DNA of 27,788 bases from positions 1 to 27,788 of the forward strand of contig JASJBX010000016.1 in assembly GCA_030066295.1 (NCBI GenBank). Reading direction: 5' to 3'. Every line of letters starts with the position of its first letter. Position 1 is the stretch's first letter. Of the stretch, positions 338-10,515 are shown piece after piece. The position numbers were made by a program, and so were the translations under genes. The notes under the pieces are model-generated. The model was not told the origin of the DNA. It saw nothing but the letters and a program-made list of their open reading frames with translations, and searched no databases. The stretch comes from Crocosphaera sp. GTDB lineage: Bacteria > Cyanobacteriota > Cyanobacteriia > Cyanobacteriales > Microcystaceae.

Positions 338-1201
338 TTAATGAACTGCCATCAGTTGAGGTTCTTGTTGAGAGGGTAGCTTTAAGGAGTCGGCAGCAGA
401 ATTACAATAGATTTCACAAGAATTATTGGGACTTTCAATTAATTTAACTTTTTCCAGTTGGGCCCCTAATTCGCGGATAGGTTGTTGCAACTGTTGCGCA
501 ATATAAAGGGCAATATTTTCAGCAGTGGGGACAACTTCGGCAAAGTAAGGGATATCTATGTTCAAGAAATTATGATCGAAGGGTTCGACAATATATTCAT
601 TGACTATGTTTTGCAAGGCTACTAAATCAACTAGCATTCCTGTACGGGGGTCAATGTCTCCGCTAACGGACACCTCAAGGTGATAATTATGACCGTGGCC
701 GTGGGTGCGAGCGCATTTACCATAAATTTTGGTATTTTCTTCTAAACTGAGGTCTGGACGGGCAAGACGATGGGCTGCACTAAAATGGGTTTGAATGTTT
801 AATGTGGCTTTCATGGCATTTCCTTGATATTCGGCCCAGAGTTGGGGGTGTTCAAATAGTTGTATTTTGACGATGGGTAAATGGGGGGCTAACCGTTTCC
901 AGATAATTCTGGCCAGGTTTTCGGTGGTGGGTAAGGTAGTTTGAAACTCTTCCCAGACATCATTGAGATAAGCGTGGTCAAGTTGAGAAGTGACTTCTCT
1001 TTTAATGACCTGTTTGACAGTAGAAAGGTTCTCTACCATGCCATATTGGTCAATCTCACCCCACAAAGAGACAAAGAGGACATAATTATGACCATGACCC
1101 GGAAAACGGCTACAAGCCCCAAAAACTTGCTGATTTTTGTTGTCGTCCCATTCCGACAACCAGTAACGATGACTGGCACTAAATTGGGCGCGACGGTTAA
1201 G
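338..1201 (-). CDS. Tandem-domain 6-pyruvoyl-tetrahydropterin synthase (PTPS/QueD fold, two fused halves); the 5' boundary is set at the predicted intron 3' splice site
   Basis: ORF track 338..1240. Both halves carry FSA(S/A)HR, C-x5-HGHNY (CSRFPGHGHNY and CARTHGHGHNY) and (L/F)DHx(Y/F)LN motifs. The spacing matches animal-type PTPS. The first ~13 codons of the track ORF, including the ATG at 1238-1240, overlap intron domain VI. After splicing, an in-frame GTG (3464-3466) lies two codons upstream of 1201, preceded by an in-frame TAA. Confidence 0.8.
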   Translation of the reverse strand, partial: LNRRAQFSASHRYWLSEWDDNKNQQVFGACSRFPGHGHNYVLFVSLWGEIDQYGMVENLSTVKQVIKREVTSQLDHAYLNDVWEEFQTTLPTTENLARIIWKRLAPHLPIVKIQLFEHPQLWAEYQGNAMKATLNIQTHFSAAHRLARPDLSLEENTKIYGKCARTHGHGHNYHLEVSVSGDIDPRTGMLVDLVALQNIVNEYIVEPFDHNFLNIDIPYFAEVVPTAENIALYIAQQLQQPIRELGAQLEKVKLIESPNNSCEIYCNSAADSLKLPSQQEPQLMAVH

Positions 1202-1243
1202 GTTGAGTCGAGGAGAGCTATTAGGCTCTGCCCCTCTCATTTA

Positions 1244-1277
1244 GATCCGAACGTGCGTATTTCTACGCATTCGGCTC
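1244..1277 (-). ncRNA. Group II intron domain V (catalytic hairpin)
   Basis: The minus strand reads GAGCCGAATGCGTAGAAATACGCACGTTCGGATC. This is a 34-nt hairpin with the AGC catalytic triad, a 2-nt bulge position and a GAAA-type loop. It closely matches the domain V consensus GAGCCGUAUGCG..GAAA..CGCACGUACGGUUC. Confidence 0.85.
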
Positions 1278-1285
1278 CCGACAAA

Positions 1286-2800
1286 TTAGACTTTTTCAGT
1301 CTTGCCCATGTGGATATAATCATGACAGCTTTCGTGAACCGCTATTAGGTTCTTTAGCTTCCAGTTGTTGTGATTTCCATCAATATGATGGAGGTGTACT
1401 CGTTCCTCGGAGGTGAGTTTGAGTCCACAACATCCACATGAATGGTGTTGCTTTTTCAAGCATTTAGAGGTTGTTCCTTCGTAGAGCTTACTATTACGTT
1501 GGCTCCAATAAACTAAGTCACCGTCGTAGGGTGATTTTACTCCTTTGACAAGAACGTGACGATTTTCTTTATAGGGTATTGCTGGAAATGCCTTCTTGAC
1601 AAGTTCTGTTGCCGTGTGTCGGCTCAGTTTCTTTTCTTTATTAAAGACTTTGAAGGTTCTGTTGTTTAATCTCCATAAGGAGAAACGTGAACCGTCCATG
1701 TAGCAGTATCTGTGGTAGTTTCGCCATCCTCTAACTAAGGGGGCTAATTTATAAGCCTTGACTTTAGCACCATAATTCGAGCAGTTGACAATATCTTTGA
1801 CTTTCTTGCGAAATGCTTTGTAGTTGTCCTCTGATGGAACACACCTAAAGCTTCCGTTGGATTTTACTTTGAAGTGCCATCCGAGAAAATCAAATCCTTC
1901 TGTCGATTTGACTAGCTTAGTTTTACTTTCTTTGACCTTTAGCCCTCTTTCTGCCAAAAATTCTTTTATGTCCTTAAGTATCTTGCTTTCATCGTCTTCT
2001 GGTTTTAGGATGAGAACCATATCGTCTGCATAGCGGACTGATTTGTGGATGTTCTCTATGCCATCGAGAGCGATGTTGGCTAGTAGAGGACTTACCACTC
2101 CCCCTTGGGGGGTTCCTTGTTCTGGAAATTCAGGATTGACTCCTGATTTTAGGCATCTCCATAGTCCAAGTTTGATGGATTTTGGAGCGATAACCTTGTC
2201 CATGATCGAGGTGTGGTTTATCCTGTCGAAGCACTTTTCTATGTCCAGTTCGAGTATCCTTTTTCTATATCCTCTGCCTTGACGATTGAGGTTAGAAAAT
2301 AGAAATTTTTGGGCATCGTGTGCGGAGCGTCCAGGTCTGAACCCGTAACTCCTTTCGTGAAAGACTGCTTCATGTGCTGGTTCTAAGGCGTATTTTACAA
2401 GGCATTGCCATGCTCTGTCTGCCATAGTAGGAACCTTAAGTGTTCTAGTTGTTCCGTCCTTTTTTGGGATGGGTATTTCTCTAAGCTTGGAATGTTTCCA
2501 ATCGTGGGCTTCGAGTAACTTTTCTGCTAAGGCGAACCGTTGTTTGAAGTTTAGAAATTTAATTCCATCGACTCCTGCGGTTTTCTTTCCAGCGTTTAGT
2601 TGAGATATTTGTCGGACTGCGAGTAATCTAGCAGCTTTGGACTTTAGAATCAGTTTCTGTAGATTCCTTGCTCGTCGTGTGTCTTCTGCTTGAATGGCTT
2701 TAAACAATCTTCTTTGGAGACGAAAGAGATTCTTACGGAGTTTTTTCCAGGGAATGCTCTTCCAGAGTTCACTAAAATCTTTGATTTTGTGTCTAACCAT
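1286..2800 (-). CDS. Group II intron-encoded protein: reverse transcriptase / maturase (X domain) / HNH endonuclease
   Basis: RT blocks: IPIPKKDGTTRTL, SYGFRPGRSAHDA, LELDIEKCFDRINH, GTPQGGVVSPLLANIAL, YADD (RYADDMVLIL), FDFLGWHF. X domain: LVRGWRNYHRYC. C-terminal Cys pairs plus HNH: HLHHIDGNHNNW...AVHESCH. I prefer the ATG at 2798-2800 (MVRHKIKDFSELWKSIPWKK...). It has GAGGTGA just upstream and gives the usual IEP N-terminus. The track ORF extends in frame to 2980. Confidence 0.9.
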   Translation of the reverse strand: MVRHKIKDFSELWKSIPWKKLRKNLFRLQRRLFKAIQAEDTRRARNLQKLILKSKAARLLAVRQISQLNAGKKTAGVDGIKFLNFKQRFALAEKLLEAHDWKHSKLREIPIPKKDGTTRTLKVPTMADRAWQCLVKYALEPAHEAVFHERSYGFRPGRSAHDAQKFLFSNLNRQGRGYRKRILELDIEKCFDRINHTSIMDKVIAPKSIKLGLWRCLKSGVNPEFPEQGTPQGGVVSPLLANIALDGIENIHKSVRYADDMVLILKPEDDESKILKDIKEFLAERGLKVKESKTKLVKSTEGFDFLGWHFKVKSNGSFRCVPSEDNYKAFRKKVKDIVNCSNYGAKVKAYKLAPLVRGWRNYHRYCYMDGSRFSLWRLNNRTFKVFNKEKKLSRHTATELVKKAFPAIPYKENRHVLVKGVKSPYDGDLVYWSQRNSKLYEGTTSKCLKKQHHSCGCCGLKLTSEERVHLHHIDGNHNNWKLKNLIAVHESCHDYIHMGKTEKV

Positions 2801-3881
2801 GTTCACCTCGGTTAATCGTTTTCTATTTGCCTCGAAGCAATTACGCTTCGTCCTACCCGAATCTAGAGGTTTCCGCATCTCGTCTTGCCTACTCAGGGGT
2901 TCGACCTTTTCCTGAGACTCTAGATTCGTTTTTATTCGTTCCGTTTGTTCGATTGTTTTGTCCCTATTAGATGTAGCCACTTCGCCTATCAGAAACCCTT
3001 GGCTATGTCACTCTCGTATCAATAAGTTGACGGGTTACATTACTCCGATGGGGTCAGAATCCTTATTGGATGCTGCTTTCTGCCCAGCAATAAGACGCTT
3101 TTCTAGGCTCTGTTTCATCATGGGGACTCCTTATTAACGCCAGTGTCACCTAGCAGTTGGTGTCTGGTTGCGTCCTGATGCCAGCTTCAGCCTCCCGAAT
3201 TCCGAGTCGGGTCACTGTGGCCAGGTCAAGAGTCAATCGTAGCCTTCGACGGGAGGGCTTGCACCTCCATCAAACAAACAGTTATTCAGACTGTAGATTT
3301 TACTTTTGACTTTGTTATTCCTTTGAGGATTGCCTGTGAGGGCTTTGTTTTTCCTCTTGGGTCAATGGGTCATTATTCTACTTTTCTCCTTTTGGGGAGT
3401 GTCTGAACCTTGGCTATACCCCTCTAGTTTCTAGAGGCTCCTGCCAAGAACGAATCGCACTAACACATTGCATAGTTAATTATTGCTAATTGCCTTCTGT
3501 AACATTTCGTAACGTTACTTTCTTTCTAGCATATACGGTTTTGGGGCATTTGAAGAGGCCAGATAAGTTTAAGCGTCTCTATCCCGTCTTCGAGGAGGAT
3601 GATAATTCCCTACCTAATACAGCAAATTAAGCTGAAACAGTCCACTAGATTGTTTAACGAAGAATCTGATGAAATGCGATCGCTTCTTTACATAAGAGTT
3701 TAGTTTGATAACGATAAAATACAAGAACATTCTCTAATTCTTTCTATTTTCTACCCTATTTACATTTCTTTAACTTCTGCAAAAGATTAAGCGTTCTTTA
3801 AATTTTTAGGGTTTATGATTCTATTTTCAAGTATTGTCGTTATCATTACACACATATAACCTTACTCCATAGCAAACAGTC

Positions 3882-4465: not shown

Positions 4466-7258
4466 ATGCGCTGTTTAAACTGCCACCTTGATAACCTTCC
4501 CGAAACCACCCAACTTTGTCCCCATTGTGGGGCGCAAGTTATCGCTTTGTTACAGGAAGTGTTACCCCAAGGAACTCAACTGCGATCGCATACATATTGT
4601 CTTGATGATGCCATGGGAAAAGGCAGTTTTGGCATTACCTATCGCGCCCATCATACCCTCTTAAAGAATCCTGTCGCTATTAAAGAGTTTTATCCTGTCG
4701 AATATGTCTCCCGAAATATTGAAACCAAACTCTTAATTATTCCTGAAAAACATCGGGACGCATATCAAAGAAATCTCTATCGTTTTTTGGAAGAAGGAAA
4801 AATATTAGCTAAGTTAGATCATCCCAATGTTGTTAAAGTCAGAGACTTGTTTGAAGAACGAGATACAGCTTATATTGTCATGGACTTGGTAGAAGGAAAA
4901 ACCCTATTACAAGAACTAGAAAATCAACCCAATCAAAAACTATCGACCGACAGAATAGAAAACCTAATTGGACAATTAGTTAATGCCTTAACTGCCATTC
5001 ATGAAGCCGGAATATATCATCTGGATTTGAAACCAGAAAATATGCTCTTAACCCCTGAAAATCAATTGATTTTAATTGACTTTGGGGCAGCTACATTAGC
5101 CAGTGATGCTAAACGAAAGAAAACCCGTTCTTTTACCGAATGTTATGCAGCCCCCGAAATAATGTCAGGGGGAGAAATAGGACCCCAAAGCGATCTCTTT
5201 GAAGTCGGAATGATCCTCCATGAACTATTAACAGGAAAATTACCCCCTCCAGCCATGACCCGTGTTTTAGAAACGGATACTTGGCAGCCTCAAGGGTTAG
5301 ATTATCCTTGGGATATGTTAATTGTTGATGCGTTAAGAATTCAGAGGACTTATCGCAGTTCAACAGTAGATCAATGGTGGGAAATGCGAAAAGAAAAAAA
5401 AGAAAATGTTATTAAAATTGAACAAAAAAGTATAGAAAATTTACAAGGAAAATTTGCCTTACCCCTATTACAACAACAAGGAATGGCTCAGAAGTTAGGG
5501 CGTGGTTGTATTAGAAAAGTGATCCCAGTTACTCAAAATCAAGTCTTAGTTTTAGAAGCAGGAGGTGCATCATTATTCAATTTTAAAACTCAAGTTACCC
5601 ATTGGGAAATTGACTGCCCTAATTCCTGTGGAGCTATCAGTGAAAATAAAAATATATTAGCTCTCGTTTGGCAACAAAATATCTACTTATGGGATTTAAC
5701 TCAAGGAACTTTTTTAAGGCAATTACAAGGTCATTCAAAGAAAATTACCGATCTTGCTTTTAATAAAGATGGTTCTTTGTTACTCTCAGGAAGCCTCGAC
5801 GAAACCTTAATTATCTGGGAAATTAAAACAGGGAAAAAACGTCACGAATTATCCGATCCCATGGGACAAATAACCGCCGTTGCCTTTAGTGCAGATAATC
5901 AATTTATTGCCTCGGGTTGCCATACGGGAATAGTAAGAATTTGGGGGGCTATATCTGGACAGGAATGGCGATGCTTAGAAGGTCACAAAATGGCAGTGGA
6001 AAGCTTAATTTTTAGCTCCGATAGTAAAGTATTGGCTTCAGGAAGCCGAGATCAAACCATTCGTTTATGGGATGTTACTTCAGGGAAATTTCAACAAGTA
6101 TTAGAAGGTCATCAAGACTGGGTAACAGGGTTAAGTTTTGATAAAAATGCAGAACATTTAGCCTCTGCATCGGCCATTAATGATAAAACCATTCGTATTT
6201 GGTCCATTGCACAACGACAACCCATTCAACACCTACAAGGACACAATAACAGTATTAAAGCGATCGCCTTTTGTCCCGATGATCGTTATCTGATCTCAGC
6301 AGCATCCGATAATACCATCCGTCTCTGGGATGGAGAAACCGGAACAGCGATCGAACAACTACAACACCATACCAATTGGGTGTATAGTGTGGCCTGTAGT
6401 GCCGATGGTCGGTGGGTGGCGATCGCCTACAGTGATGGGACTGTCCATCTTTGGGATGTCATAAAACAACGGGAAGTCAGTTGTCTCGAAGGTCATGAAA
6501 GTGCAGTTTCTAGTCTGGCTTTTTGTCCGGATAGTCAACATTTGGTATCCGGCAGTTGGGATGGAACCCTCAGAGTTTGGGATATTCACACAGGAAAATG
6601 TAAACGCATTTTACAAGGTCATCAACACTGGGTCAGCAGTGTTGCAGTCAGTCCTAATGGTCAATGGGTTGCTTCGGGAAGTTGGGACAAAACCGTTTGT
6701 CTTTGGGAGATAAGTCACAGTTGGCCTAATTTTAAAGGAAGTAAACCCACTCGTATTTTACTGGGTCATTTAGAAGATATTGAAGGGGTTGCTTTTAGTC
6801 CGGATAATCAATTAATGGCTAGTTGTAGTAATGATAAAACCATTAAAATCTGGGAAGTTGTATCTGGTCAACAAGTCCAACAATTAGGAGGTCATCAATA
6901 TAGCGTTGAAGATGTGGTTTTTAGTCCCGATGGTCAATTTATTGTTTCCGTTAGTCGGGATAAAACGGTGAGAGTTTGGCACATTATTTCGGGTAAGGAA
7001 ATTCATCGTTTTCAAGGTCATACTAATTATGTTAATTGTGTGGCATTTTGTTTAAATGGTCGTTATTTGGCCTCAGGAGGAAAAGATAAAATGATTGCTA
7101 TTTGGGATCTCATTTCAGGGGAATTAACCCAATTAATTCAAGGTCATACTAATAGTATTAATAGTATTGCTTTTACTGGGGATGGTTCCTATTTAGTGTC
7201 TGGGGATAATGATGGTGTGGTGAGACTATGGACGTTACAGCTAGGAAGTGAGGGTTAG
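4466..7258 (+). CDS. Ser/Thr protein kinase with an N-terminal zinc ribbon and about 14 C-terminal WD40 repeats
   Basis: Zinc ribbon: CLNC...CPHC. Hanks kinase motifs: GKGSFGITY, VAIKEF, HLDLKPEN (non-RD, catalytic Asp present), DFG, AAPE. From about residue 375 there are repeated LxGH...(V/I)xxxAFSPDG..(L/I)ASGSxDxT(I/V)R(L/I)W(D/E) units, roughly 14 in number, enough for two propellers. Confidence 0.9.
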   Translation: MRCLNCHLDNLPETTQLCPHCGAQVIALLQEVLPQGTQLRSHTYCLDDAMGKGSFGITYRAHHTLLKNPVAIKEFYPVEYVSRNIETKLLIIPEKHRDAYQRNLYRFLEEGKILAKLDHPNVVKVRDLFEERDTAYIVMDLVEGKTLLQELENQPNQKLSTDRIENLIGQLVNALTAIHEAGIYHLDLKPENMLLTPENQLILIDFGAATLASDAKRKKTRSFTECYAAPEIMSGGEIGPQSDLFEVGMILHELLTGKLPPPAMTRVLETDTWQPQGLDYPWDMLIVDALRIQRTYRSSTVDQWWEMRKEKKENVIKIEQKSIENLQGKFALPLLQQQGMAQKLGRGCIRKVIPVTQNQVLVLEAGGASLFNFKTQVTHWEIDCPNSCGAISENKNILALVWQQNIYLWDLTQGTFLRQLQGHSKKITDLAFNKDGSLLLSGSLDETLIIWEIKTGKKRHELSDPMGQITAVAFSADNQFIASGCHTGIVRIWGAISGQEWRCLEGHKMAVESLIFSSDSKVLASGSRDQTIRLWDVTSGKFQQVLEGHQDWVTGLSFDKNAEHLASASAINDKTIRIWSIAQRQPIQHLQGHNNSIKAIAFCPDDRYLISAASDNTIRLWDGETGTAIEQLQHHTNWVYSVACSADGRWVAIAYSDGTVHLWDVIKQREVSCLEGHESAVSSLAFCPDSQHLVSGSWDGTLRVWDIHTGKCKRILQGHQHWVSSVAVSPNGQWVASGSWDKTVCLWEISHSWPNFKGSKPTRILLGHLEDIEGVAFSPDNQLMASCSNDKTIKIWEVVSGQQVQQLGGHQYSVEDVVFSPDGQFIVSVSRDKTVRVWHIISGKEIHRFQGHTNYVNCVAFCLNGRYLASGGKDKMIAIWDLISGELTQLIQGHTNSINSIAFTGDGSYLVSGDNDGVVRLWTLQLGSEG

Positions 7259-7788: not shown

Positions 7789-10515
7789 TTGCAGGAAAAA
7801 CCTGATAGAAAAGTAACCTTATCATCCAGTGTCATTACCTCACCTCCTCTCGTTAAACCTTGGGTGGATAGGTTAGAAGAAATGACCACTATTCAAAGTT
7901 GGATTGATGATGCTGACGTTAATTTAATCGGGATTGTTGGGTTAGGTGGAATCGGAAAATCTGCCTTGGTTGCTTATTTTTATAACAATTTTTTTAACAA
8001 AAACGTAGAAACGTTTCATGAAACGTTTCTACAAAACAAATTTTGGGCTGATGTTAGTTTAAATCCTGATTTTGCTGCTTTTGCTGAATCCATCATTAAG
8101 GGGTTATCAGGAACAGTAAATGCGACGGGTGACGTTAATATTTTAATTGCTGATTTATTCAGAATTTTACATAACAATCGTTGTTTATTAGTGGTGGATA
8201 ATATTGAAACTTTATTAGATGAATCAGGAGAATGGCAAAGCGAAAATTATGCTACATTTTTTCAGCGTTGGAAGCAACAAGGACACACCAGTATTTTATT
8301 GTTAACTACAAGGGATAAACCTAATCTCTATCGAGGAGACAATAATTGGTATTCTCTGGGACGTTTTACGGTTGATGAAGGTAAAACACTATTAAAAGGA
8401 TTACAAATTGAAGGAAGCGACCAAGACCTAGAAAATTTAGTTACTCAAATAGATGGTCATGCTTTGACCTTAAGATTAGTAGCATCATACCTCAAAGAAT
8501 ATTGTGATAGTCAACTAAATCAAGTGAAAGAATTGGGTTTAGATGAATTTGAGTTAATTTACAACGAAGCATCAGGACTCCATCGCAATAAAACCGATGC
8601 ACGATTATCATGGATATTAGAACAACATTTAGACCGTTTAAGCGAGAAAAAAAGACAATTTTTAGTTAATTTATCTGTCTATCGTCAACCCTTTGACGTA
8701 ACAGCAGCAACGGGAATGTATATCAATGCTAATTTTGCAGAAGGAGAGACAGAAGAAAACATCAAACCCATAGAAGTAAAAAAAGAATTACAAAATCTGC
8801 TCCATCGTTCCTTATTATCCCGTAGTAATAAAAAAGGTTATGAATGTCCCCTATTACTTAAACCCTATTTACAGAAAAAATATTCGGACTTAACTAACTG
8901 TCATCAAACAGCAATTAATTATTATTTATCTGTTGTTCCCCCCAAACCCTGGAAAACCCTGGATGAGATACAAGGATATTTAGAGATTTTTTATCATTAT
9001 TATCAACTCGGAGAATATGACACAGCGTTTGATTATTTACATGATATTGATCAGTTTATGACTTTCCAGGGATATTATCATCTTCTAGTAGAATATTATT
9101 CAGATTTAATCAGGGGATATAAGAAAAATAAAAAGAAAGATAATAGAAATTATGCACATTCACTTAATAACTTAGGTGATACTTACAATTTACTGGGACA
9201 ATATAAACAGGCCATAGAATACTTTCAACAGTCCTTAGCTATCTTTACAGAAATCGGCGATAGAGAAGGTGAAGCTCGTTCCTATACTAATTTGGGGAAT
9301 GCTTACAATTACTTAAAGAAATATCAACAAGCTATAGAATATTCTCAGCAGTCCTTAACTATTTATAAAGAAATTGGTGAGCATAAAAGCAAAGCGAATT
9401 GCTACAATAATTTAGGCATTACCTATGAATCTCTTAGAGACTATGAACAGTCTATTCAATACTACGAGAAGTCTTTAGCTATTGCAATTGAAACGGATAA
9501 CCCGAATATACAGGAAAAATCTTATAATAATTTGGGTTTAGTTTACAACTCTCTAGGAAAATATCAATCAGCGATAGAATACTATGAGAAGTCTTTAGCT
9601 ATCTGTACAGAATTAGGCGATCGTCCTGGTGAAGCTTCTTCTTATATTAATTTGGGTTCTACTTACTATGAATTGCAACAATATGAACAAGCAATAGAAT
9701 GCTATCAACATTCTTTAGCTATCGATATAGAAATTAACAATCATCTAGGTAAAGGTGATTCTTATCTTGGTTTAGGTAATGCTTATTATTCCCTGAAACA
9801 ATATGAAAAAGCGATACAATACCATCAACAGTATTTAGATATCTCTACAGACATTAGCAATCGCAACGGGGAAGCAATTGTCTATCATAAATTGGGTTCT
9901 GCTTACAATTCCCTGGGACAATATCAACAAGCAATAGAATACTATCAACAATCCTTAGCTATCAAAAAAGAAATCGGCAATAGAAAGGGTGAAGCAATTT
10001 CCTATAATAAATTGGGTTCTGCTTACAATTCCTTGGGACAATATCAACAAGCCATAGAATACCATCAATTTGCATTACAATTATTCCAACAATTAGGGAA
10101 TCCTCATGATATTATTAGCTGTCTTGAAAATTTAGGTAAGACTTATTTCTGCTTAAAACAATACTCCCAAGCAAGAGACTATTATCAAGCAACCCTAGAA
10201 ATTAAACGAAGATTAGAAGACAAAGAAGGAGAAGCAAGAACATTAATAACTCTCAGTAAAATCTATTCTGAAATGGGAAAAGTAAAAGAAGGTTATGCTT
10301 TATGTTTTCAAGGTAGTCAGATATTACAAGAATTAGATTTACCCCTCTCAGAAATGCCATATCCTCAGTGGTTCAAATCTTTGATACAATTTGGACAACA
10401 GAGTAAACTGCAACTGATTTTATGTTTTGTTTTTGGAATCATTGCTTTTCCCTTTGCTTTAGTGGGTTTTATTTTATTATTAATATGGAGAAGGATTAAA
10501 GGAATGATTGATTAG
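7789..10515 (+). CDS. NB-ARC (STAND/AP-ATPase, NLR-like) NTPase with about 10 TPR repeats and a C-terminal transmembrane helix
   Basis: Walker A: GIVGLGGIGKS (7939-7962 covers GLGGIGKS). Walker B-like: CLLVVDNIE. Also LLLTTRD and a GLPL-like IDGHALTL. Then about ten 40-aa TPR units (NLGxxYxxLGxYxxAIEYxxxSLAI...). The last ~30 aa are hydrophobic followed by RRIK. The track start is TTG at 7789. The only ATG before the P-loop is at 7882. The frame is open from 7741, so the true N-terminus may come from 7331 via the frameshift. Confidence 0.9.
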   Translation: MQEKPDRKVTLSSSVITSPPLVKPWVDRLEEMTTIQSWIDDADVNLIGIVGLGGIGKSALVAYFYNNFFNKNVETFHETFLQNKFWADVSLNPDFAAFAESIIKGLSGTVNATGDVNILIADLFRILHNNRCLLVVDNIETLLDESGEWQSENYATFFQRWKQQGHTSILLLTTRDKPNLYRGDNNWYSLGRFTVDEGKTLLKGLQIEGSDQDLENLVTQIDGHALTLRLVASYLKEYCDSQLNQVKELGLDEFELIYNEASGLHRNKTDARLSWILEQHLDRLSEKKRQFLVNLSVYRQPFDVTAATGMYINANFAEGETEENIKPIEVKKELQNLLHRSLLSRSNKKGYECPLLLKPYLQKKYSDLTNCHQTAINYYLSVVPPKPWKTLDEIQGYLEIFYHYYQLGEYDTAFDYLHDIDQFMTFQGYYHLLVEYYSDLIRGYKKNKKKDNRNYAHSLNNLGDTYNLLGQYKQAIEYFQQSLAIFTEIGDREGEARSYTNLGNAYNYLKKYQQAIEYSQQSLTIYKEIGEHKSKANCYNNLGITYESLRDYEQSIQYYEKSLAIAIETDNPNIQEKSYNNLGLVYNSLGKYQSAIEYYEKSLAICTELGDRPGEASSYINLGSTYYELQQYEQAIECYQHSLAIDIEINNHLGKGDSYLGLGNAYYSLKQYEKAIQYHQQYLDISTDISNRNGEAIVYHKLGSAYNSLGQYQQAIEYYQQSLAIKKEIGNRKGEAISYNKLGSAYNSLGQYQQAIEYHQFALQLFQQLGNPHDIISCLENLGKTYFCLKQYSQARDYYQATLEIKRRLEDKEGEARTLITLSKIYSEMGKVKEGYALCFQGSQILQELDLPLSEMPYPQWFKSLIQFGQQSKLQLILCFVFGIIAFPFALVGFILLLIWRRIKGMID
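9151..10354 (+). repeat. Array of about ten 120-nt (40-codon) TPR-encoding units with visible DNA-level periodicity
   Basis: Recurrent ...aatttgggt..gcttacaat..ctgggacaatatcaacaagc.atagaatac.atcaaca.tccttagctat... Units 9841-9960 and 9961-10080 are nearly identical over about 80 nt. Confidence 0.7.

Follow-up and report, generated by a model that had tools for sequence, protein, structure and literature searches.

The window analysed here is a stretch of 27,788 nucleotides of the contig JASJBX010000016.1 from Crocosphaera sp. (assembly GCA_030066295.1). It carries on its minus strand a group II intron of 2260 nt (3460..1201), delimited by intron-less alleles and family alignments, which interrupts a gene that from its sequence is a two-domain 6-pyruvoyl-/6-carboxy-tetrahydropterin synthase (PTPS/QueD) of a Crocosphaera-like cyanobacterium. 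Our reading, to which we attribute a probability of roughly 0.8, is that a mobile group II intron has entered codon 5 of this gene, that the ATG at 3473-3471 is its native start codon and that exact removal of the intron would restore an enzyme of 291 amino acids. The original prediction, made from the sequence alone, had claimed a complete group II intron running from 3460 to 1202 near the 5' end of the PTPS gene. The element and its first nucleotide are as it stated, and the last nucleotide is at 1201.

Delimitation of the intron

Intron-less alleles of the gene were detected in Crocosphaera sp. Alani8 (L001, site ATGCAGTGTGTTATTAATCGTCGC), in metagenomes (L003 and L089, ATGCAATGTGTTATTAACCGTCGC), in Rippkaea PCC 8801 (L005, ATGCAATGTGTTATCAACCGTCGT) and in a Crocosphaera metagenome-assembled genome (MAG; L096, ATGCAATGCGTTATTAACCGTCGC). 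The site is ATGCAATGTGTTAT(T/C)AACCG and these alleles read ATGCAATGTGTTA^TTAACCGTCGC, where the caret marks the insertion point. L003 and L089 read ATGCAATGTGTTA^TTAACC, and variants are found in L001 (...CAGTGTGTTA^TTAATC) and in L096 (...TGCGTTA^TTAACC). In all five cases exon 1 joined to exon 2 corresponds to the intron-less allele, which indicates a precise insertion. With BLAST, the homology between the window and the alleles L096, L001, L003 and L089 ends exactly at 3461 and restarts exactly at 1200, and the boundaries cannot be slid because the flanking bases differ at each junction. These loci also place the insertion inside the gene, as the original prediction had supposed, 13 nt past the native ATG and not in intergenic DNA.

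The family of related introns gives the same ends. The intron begins with GTGCG (3460-3456), in accordance with the GUGYG signature, and the sequence GUGCG(A/G)NU(C/U)G is kept at the 5' end of 37 relatives; the predicted 5' splice site before GTGCG thus agrees with both the family and the empty sites. A 5' splice site at AGTGCG, which would give MQCVLNRR, was considered and rejected, as it contradicts these two lines of evidence. At the other end, all the alignments of the whole intron with its relatives stop at position 2260 of the intron, which is 1201 in the window. The sequences of more than 60 cyanobacterial relatives finish with ...CGACUC(A/U)ACC and diverge directly after it, and many contigs of about 2.1 kb that represent collapsed repeats finish at this same 3' end. 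The Rfam model RF00029 (domains V and VI) matches over its full length at 1279..1202 on the minus strand (54.3 bits for a gathering score of 40, E = 3e-08), and this is the sole Rfam match within the window. The covariance model therefore confirms domains V and VI, and in this intron family its boundary, here at 1202, falls one base before the true end, a point that matters when model boundaries are used to set reading frames.

The host gene and its start codon

Excision of 3460..1201 yields an open reading frame (ORF) of 876 nt that starts with MQCVINRRAQFSASHRYW and encodes 291 amino acids. The ligated exons read ATG CAA TGT GTT A|TT AAC CGT (MQCVINRR), codon 5 (A|TT, Ile) being split between its first and second bases, so that the intron follows 13 nt of coding sequence. 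Every close homologue has 291 amino acids and the N-terminus MQC(V/I)INRRAQFSASHRYW, with which the ligated exons agree; the homologues of this length all start with MQCV/IINRRAQFSASHRYW, and the nearest ones are Crocosphaera proteins with identities of up to 90%. The family PF01242 is recognized in two stretches of the host protein (223.6 bits), which correspond to the two PTPS domains. The earlier ligated sequence contained one base too many, the correct junction being GTTA|TTAACC. Although it concerns a single base at the 3' end, this correction shifts the start codon and with it the predicted N-terminus: the GTG start and the N-terminus MLLNRR that had been put forward give way to the ATG at 3473-3471 and to MQCVINRR.

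The gene model of the public databases is affected as well. NCBI annotates an ORF of 300 amino acids that starts at an ATG of domain VI (e.g. WP_437175208.1, MGK7961877.1). The 13 residues at the N-terminus of this model are ribozyme domain VI, and the true start, 2.2 kb upstream, is omitted.

Ribozyme domains and intron-encoded protein

The coordinates of the features are given in Table 1. Within the ribozyme, the structural analysis covered domains V and VI, the EBS loops and the 5' stems.

Table 1. Features of the intron and of the interrupted PTPS gene in the window
Feature	Position	Strand	Evidence
Complete group II intron, GUGCG...CGACUCAACC	1201..3460	-	empty-site alleles, family alignments, Rfam match to domains V and VI
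PTPS exon 1, coding part, ATG CAA TGT GTT A (M Q C V and first base of Ile-5)	3461..3473	-	homologues, intron-less alleles
PTPS exon 2, TT AAC CGT ..., stop at 340-338; first base U1200 = IBS3	338..1200	-	homology to intron-less alleles, PF01242
Intron-encoded protein, 504 aa; RVT_N, reverse transcriptase, maturase X, C-terminal Zn-finger/HNH-like	1286..2800	-	Pfam, homologues
Domain V, 34 nt, AGC triad at 1276-1274	1244..1277	-	Rfam alignment, fold
Domain VI hairpin, branch-point A at 1208	1203..1240	-	Rfam, fold, family conservation
Spurious start codon AUG, base of domain VI	1238..1240	-	ORF list, annotation, fold
About 100 nt extra in the 5' stem of domain I (intron positions ~57-165)	3296..3404	-	alignment with six relatives
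IBS2, GCAAU, overlaps the TG of the start codon	3467..3471	-	covariation in 38 introns
IBS1, GUGUUA, final 6 nt of exon 1	3461..3466	-	family covariation register
EBS2, AUUGC, 5 bp with IBS2	3087..3091	-	family covariation
EBS1, UGAUAC, hairpin loop closed by GUCA...UGAC	3016..3021	-	family covariation
EBS3, G in GAAGUGG, G.U with U1200	2980	-	covariation of column 481

Domain V was located correctly by the original prediction, as shown by the Rfam match and by the fold. The predicted hairpin of domain VI with a bulged A is also found in the minimum free energy fold, where the bulge is GA; A1208, the branch point, is bulged and is kept across the intron family; counted back from the 3' end (1201), it is the 8th nucleotide. 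The fold of both domains has a z-score of -2.9 relative to shuffled sequence. The annotated ATG of the host ORF and the following codons, about 13 in number, had been attributed to intron RNA, and this ATG does lie within the basal helix of domain VI.

In the 5' part of domain I, the distance between GUGCG and the conserved sequence UAACUG...GAUGGAGGUG is about 175 nt in the window and about 75-90 nt in the relatives. The stem that bears the additional sequence of about 100 nt is probably IB. None of the relatives contains this insertion, which explains that BLAST gives no match for the first 100 nt of the intron, although these nucleotides otherwise align. A search for it as a repeat or a miniature inverted-repeat transposable element (MITE) detected no further copy, either in the window or among the 80 related loci described below.

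The intron-encoded protein (IEP), whose ORF lies in domain IV, starts at the ATG at 2800 according to annotated public homologues and is preceded, 5 nt upstream, by GAGGT. Three Pfam families are above their cut-offs, namely RVT_N (100 bits), RVT_1 (133 bits) and GIIM (27.8 bits), and the reverse transcriptase domain contains the motif YADD. In the C-terminal part, the arrangement CxxC...HHIDGNHNN...H can be seen by eye, the HNH family PF01844 being below its threshold (15.9 bits for a cut-off of 21.4, E = 0.015). The nearest relative of known structure is the PDB entry 6ME0, 'Maturase reverse transcriptase' (E = 2.3e-71, residues 12-365); we take 6ME0 and 6MEC to be the maturase of the Thermosynechococcus group IIB intron T.el4h. 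This best match would fit a place of the IEP in the chloroplast-like (CL) clade. The entry 5G2X, which corresponds to Ll.LtrB of Lactococcus lactis, gives a weaker match. Several assemblies carry the same intact IEP ORF, and its codons differ from those of a metagenome contig, L094, by 24 synonymous and 9 non-synonymous changes. An intact frame shared by several assemblies and a mostly synonymous divergence are signs that the intron is alive.

Exon-binding sequences

The exon-binding sequences (EBS) and intron-binding sequences (IBS), which the original prediction had been unable to identify, were assigned by covariation within the family. The 37 relatives in which both ends could be placed and the window intron form a set of 38 introns with highly varied flanks; for each exon flank position, the best-pairing column of the intron alignment was sought. 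Exon positions -12 to -8 (IBS2) pair with intron positions 375 to 371 (EBS2) in 92-97% of cases, versus 58-71% for the next-best columns. Positions -6 to -4 (IBS1) pair with 445 to 443 (EBS1) in 97% (next-best 61-66%), and position +1 (IBS3) pairs with 481 (EBS3) in 95% (next-best 63%). Positions -3 to -1 extend the EBS1 register to 440; gaps blur these columns, and the register was inspected visually in seven introns. Family members leave position -7 unpaired. The window's pairing between IBS2 and EBS2 occupies exon positions -11 to -7, versus -12 to -8 in the family register. A separate EBS3 together with EBS2 corresponds to the IIB pattern, and on the basis of its EBS1, EBS2 and EBS3 the window intron is IIB-like.

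The imperfect pairings at this site suggest that PTPS is not the original cognate target of the intron. No cognate site was found elsewhere: every contig with an identical or near-identical IEP represents this same PTPS locus. The target of the window type is GCAATGTGTTA^T, versus GCAATGCGTTA^T in L096, where a synonymous TGC codon would place a C/A mismatch in IBS1.

Proposed splicing and its interference with translation

The intron would have arrived in PTPS by retrohoming or retrotransposition, with its own reverse transcriptase/maturase aboard. Transcription from the PTPS promoter would give a pre-mRNA containing the intron, and the IEP, translated from a ribosome-binding site of its own within domain IV, would aid the folding of the ribozyme. 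EBS1 and EBS2 would hold the final 11 nt of exon 1, A1208 would attack the 5' splice site and the exons would be joined at GUUA|UUAAC, the native enzyme being produced from spliced mRNA only. On unspliced RNA, the native AUG encodes a peptide of 19 amino acids, MQCVSAIRSWQEPLETRGV, and initiation at this codon would yield nothing else. Since the start codon contributes its UG to IBS2 and IBS1 extends over codons 3 to 5, an initiating ribosome would cover both sites, and translation initiation and splicing probably compete. A coding 5' exon of 13 nt, together with the overlap between IBS2 and the start codon, makes this locus a compact natural system for the study of initiation-splicing interference in bacteria.

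Points against the proposed reading and alternative explanations

Several observations weigh against the reading of a functional intron in codon 5. Splicing in vivo is inferred from sequence. The spliced protein of 291 amino acids has no exact match in a collection of 15 billion proteins, and thus neither a spliced transcript nor an identical intron-less allele has been seen there. The IEP scores 283.5 bits with TIGR04416, just under the cut-off of 300 bits. In the triad of domain V (1274-1276 with 1245-1247), the middle G faces an A and not the usual U, a configuration flagged as non-canonical by Rfam; the sequence CCGGAUC is, however, common to all of the 60-plus family members, which makes this G/A pair a trait of the lineage and not a sign of damage. 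The insertion of about 100 nt in domain I may affect folding. The exon pairings are also imperfect: EBS1-IBS1 comprises 6 bp of which two are G.U, EBS2 has one mismatch in the family register and EBS3-IBS3 is a G.U pair. Finally, G2980 could form a Watson-Crick pair with C1201, so that some 3' splicing one base upstream is possible and the 3' site of the original prediction may be used occasionally.

If that 3' site after 1202 were the main one, exon 2 would begin at C1201 and the protein, initiated at the GTG at 3466-3464, would start with MLLNRRAQ.... The alignment with the Rfam model does stop at 1202, EBS3 would gain the G-C pair just mentioned and the frame from this GTG stays open. We nevertheless hold this for the least credible of the alternatives. 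The intron-less alleles have no C at this point (GTTATTAACC), the terminal C belongs to the intron in all the relatives, and the related intron L008 likewise has a G.U pair between EBS3 and IBS3. With this junction the conserved ATG CAA TGT GTT runs into a stop codon (MQCVT*), and an N-terminus MLLN is found in no homologue. It is also very unlikely that the insertion has inactivated PTPS and left a recent pseudogene, tolerated thanks to another QueD/PTPS paralogue. Close relatives have intron-less alleles, the nearest being 98% identical in protein, which speaks for this explanation. Both exons are, however, intact and in phase, the features of the ribozyme and of the IEP are all intact, and the intron-bearing allele is present in several assemblies, on two PTPS backgrounds that are 7.9% apart and differ mainly by synonymous changes.

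The AUG at the base of domain VI requires a closer discussion. It opens the ORF of 300 amino acids (MRGAEPNSSPRLN followed by LNRR...); 40 nt of intron and the bases TT amount to 14 codons, which puts the AUG in phase with exon 2. In our reading, this ORF is an accident of phase and not a real gene start. The opposite view is that the intron splices poorly or never and that the enzyme, made from unspliced or processed RNA, is this open, in-frame 300-aa protein, in which 13 intron-encoded residues replace MQCV. The contig L094 (GCA_013332835.1, JAAUXY010159424.1) speaks for it. Its homology to the window begins at 2785, and exon 1 and domains I to III are absent; despite the loss of exon 1 and of the first 675 nt of the intron, and despite a U1245G change opposite the A of the domain V triad, the 300-aa ORF is intact and differs from that of the window by 44 synonymous and 16 non-synonymous codon changes. 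L094 is, however, a single metagenome contig of 4 kb, possibly chimeric, and its truncation may be of any age. Immediately behind the stable hairpin of domain V, the basal helix of domain VI holds the U and G of the AUG in base pairs, no Shine-Dalgarno sequence precedes it, and an in-frame AUG would arise by accident in one case out of three. The same AUG (variant AAUGAGAGG) is present in related introns at unrelated sites (L007, L009, L041, L061 and L065), and was thus not selected as a PTPS start. We therefore regard translation of the 300-aa enzyme from such RNA, which in the original prediction was one of two routes to alternative N-termini, as unlikely. In L094, positions 1-1436 consist of AT-rich cyanobacterial DNA without relation to the locus; these upstream 1435 nt match none of the fetched loci, and the ORF found there has no convincing Pfam family. 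The contig may represent genuine decay of the intron or a chimera, and we treat it as a lead and not as evidence. In a milder form, which is also doubtful, the AUG of domain VI would be a working back-up start, and unspliceable alleles such as L094 would still make an active enzyme of 300 amino acids; if true, this would represent an exaptation of the ribozyme as coding sequence, with a host gene that survives the decay of its intron.

Distribution and family of the intron

At least five further assemblies or metagenomes (L086/L091, L092, L093, L090 and L095) contain, at the same site and with 99.9-100% identity, the intron that we place in codon 5 of PTPS. The closest intron-less allele found (P0131 on L096) has an identity of 98% at the protein level and of 96.4% at the DNA level, and thus the presence of the intron varies among close relatives. 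Between L094 and the window, the PTPS allele diverges by 7.9% and the intron part by 2.4%, a contrast that fits the spread of the intron, or of an intron-bearing segment, between lineages.

The contig L090 (GCA_051439585.1) shows no difference from the window between about 800 and 7240, the whole intron included; over 1 to about 800, a part made up of the last third of PTPS and the DNA beyond its 3' end, about 19% of positions differ. The limit near 800 resembles a sharp recombination breakpoint inside the PTPS gene. Several MAG contigs end in the stretch 1-800: L086 at 702, L092 and L093 slightly further.

Scanning species-representative genomes with the IEP yielded 80 loci, all cyanobacterial, with protein identities of 66-86%. 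When the flanks were ligated, a long sense-strand ORF was obtained for 13 of 37 copies, versus one in the antisense control, which indicates that living inside genes is a habit of this intron lineage. In L013 the intron lies within an ORF that resembles, by eye, an inorganic pyrophosphatase, and two Nostoc genomes (L042, L071) have it at the same site of a phosphatase-like ORF. The original prediction had stated that bacterial group II introns seldom interrupt conserved metabolic genes; this rarity holds for bacteria generally (PMC4649490) but not for this family.

The sister copies (Crocosphaera and Nostocales; L006-L085), whose IEPs have the identities given above, share with the window intron the EBS positions and the ends GUGCGAUUCG (5') and CGACUCAACC (3'). 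They differ by their target sites, none of those fetched being in PTPS, and the extra sequence of about 100 nt in domain I is specific to the window copy. The two closest Crocosphaera relatives, L007 (from ~1918) and L009 (from ~2830), are 5'-truncated, with homology beginning at intron positions 195 and 496, respectively; truncated copies of the intron are thus common in Crocosphaera. Apparent nested introns were observed in three loci: in L047, from about 4531 onward, a new GTGCGGTTCG directly follows domain V; in L085, at about 540-560, the 5' flank is the start of the IEP gene of another intron (AGAGCATGATTAGGC); and in L064, just after 4637, the 3' flank opens with AGTGCGATTATG.

Comparison with known systems

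The intron in PTPS is an ordinary new example of a phenomenon already known in cyanobacteria, and it adds a group II intron in a chromosomal metabolic gene of Crocosphaera, an ecologically important marine nitrogen fixer. The literature search returned nothing specific on this intron, either for Crocosphaera or for PTPS genes. Group II introns of bacteria are mostly intergenic (PMC4143802, PMC4649490). In Trichodesmium, 17 of them splice in vivo from 10 host genes (PMC4143802). As in the window, sense introns lie inside conserved protein-coding genes of Trichodesmium erythraeum (apcD, nrdJ, dnaN and thyX among others; PMC4143802, PMC4649490), and there too the recognition of the intron is necessary for a correct annotation of the host gene, the gene model of Tery_4732 having needed correction around its intron (PMC4143802, PMC4649490). 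The splicing of the Trichodesmium introns is seen in split RNA-seq reads, whereas that of the window intron is deduced. Many of them are ORF-less and the window intron has a full IEP; unlike them, it is only 13 nt past the start codon, with an IBS2 that overlaps the AUG.

If 6ME0 is indeed T.el4h, the closest solved relative of the IEP belongs to an intron that shares the IIB-type architecture and represents a different lineage. The copies of T.el4h are mainly outside genes and its IEP is not known to have an endonuclease domain, unlike the window IEP with its HNH-like (sub-threshold in Pfam) C-terminus. Ll.LtrB, which interrupts the relaxase gene ltrB of Lactococcus lactis, encodes a protein with reverse transcriptase, maturase and endonuclease activities, and the expression of its host gene depends on splicing. 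Like the window intron, it is a bacterial group II intron that interrupts a gene. However, Ll.LtrB is a IIA intron in a gene of a conjugative element and is not near the start codon, whereas the window intron is IIB-like and sits in a chromosomal metabolic gene.

Upstream region and neighbouring genes

Scanning with consensus promoters detected no sigma-70-like site near exon 1. An inverted repeat GTAAC-N10-GTTAC is present upstream of the native ATG at 3499-3518 (-), preceded by TATATGCT at 3528-3535 (-). The intron-less loci L001, L003 and L096 share both elements, of which L005 has a looser version. Possible roles are those of an operator and a -10 element in the PTPS promoter or 5' untranslated region. 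Further upstream, the plus strand of the window encodes, according to Pfam labels, a Ser/Thr kinase of 930 amino acids fused to WD40 repeats (4466-7258) and an NB-ARC/TPR protein of 908 amino acids (7789-10515). The gene order upstream of PTPS is different in each of the intron-less relatives examined: L001 and L096 have a gene for a pentapeptide protein there, L003 has a toxin-antitoxin pair and L005 has dnaE.

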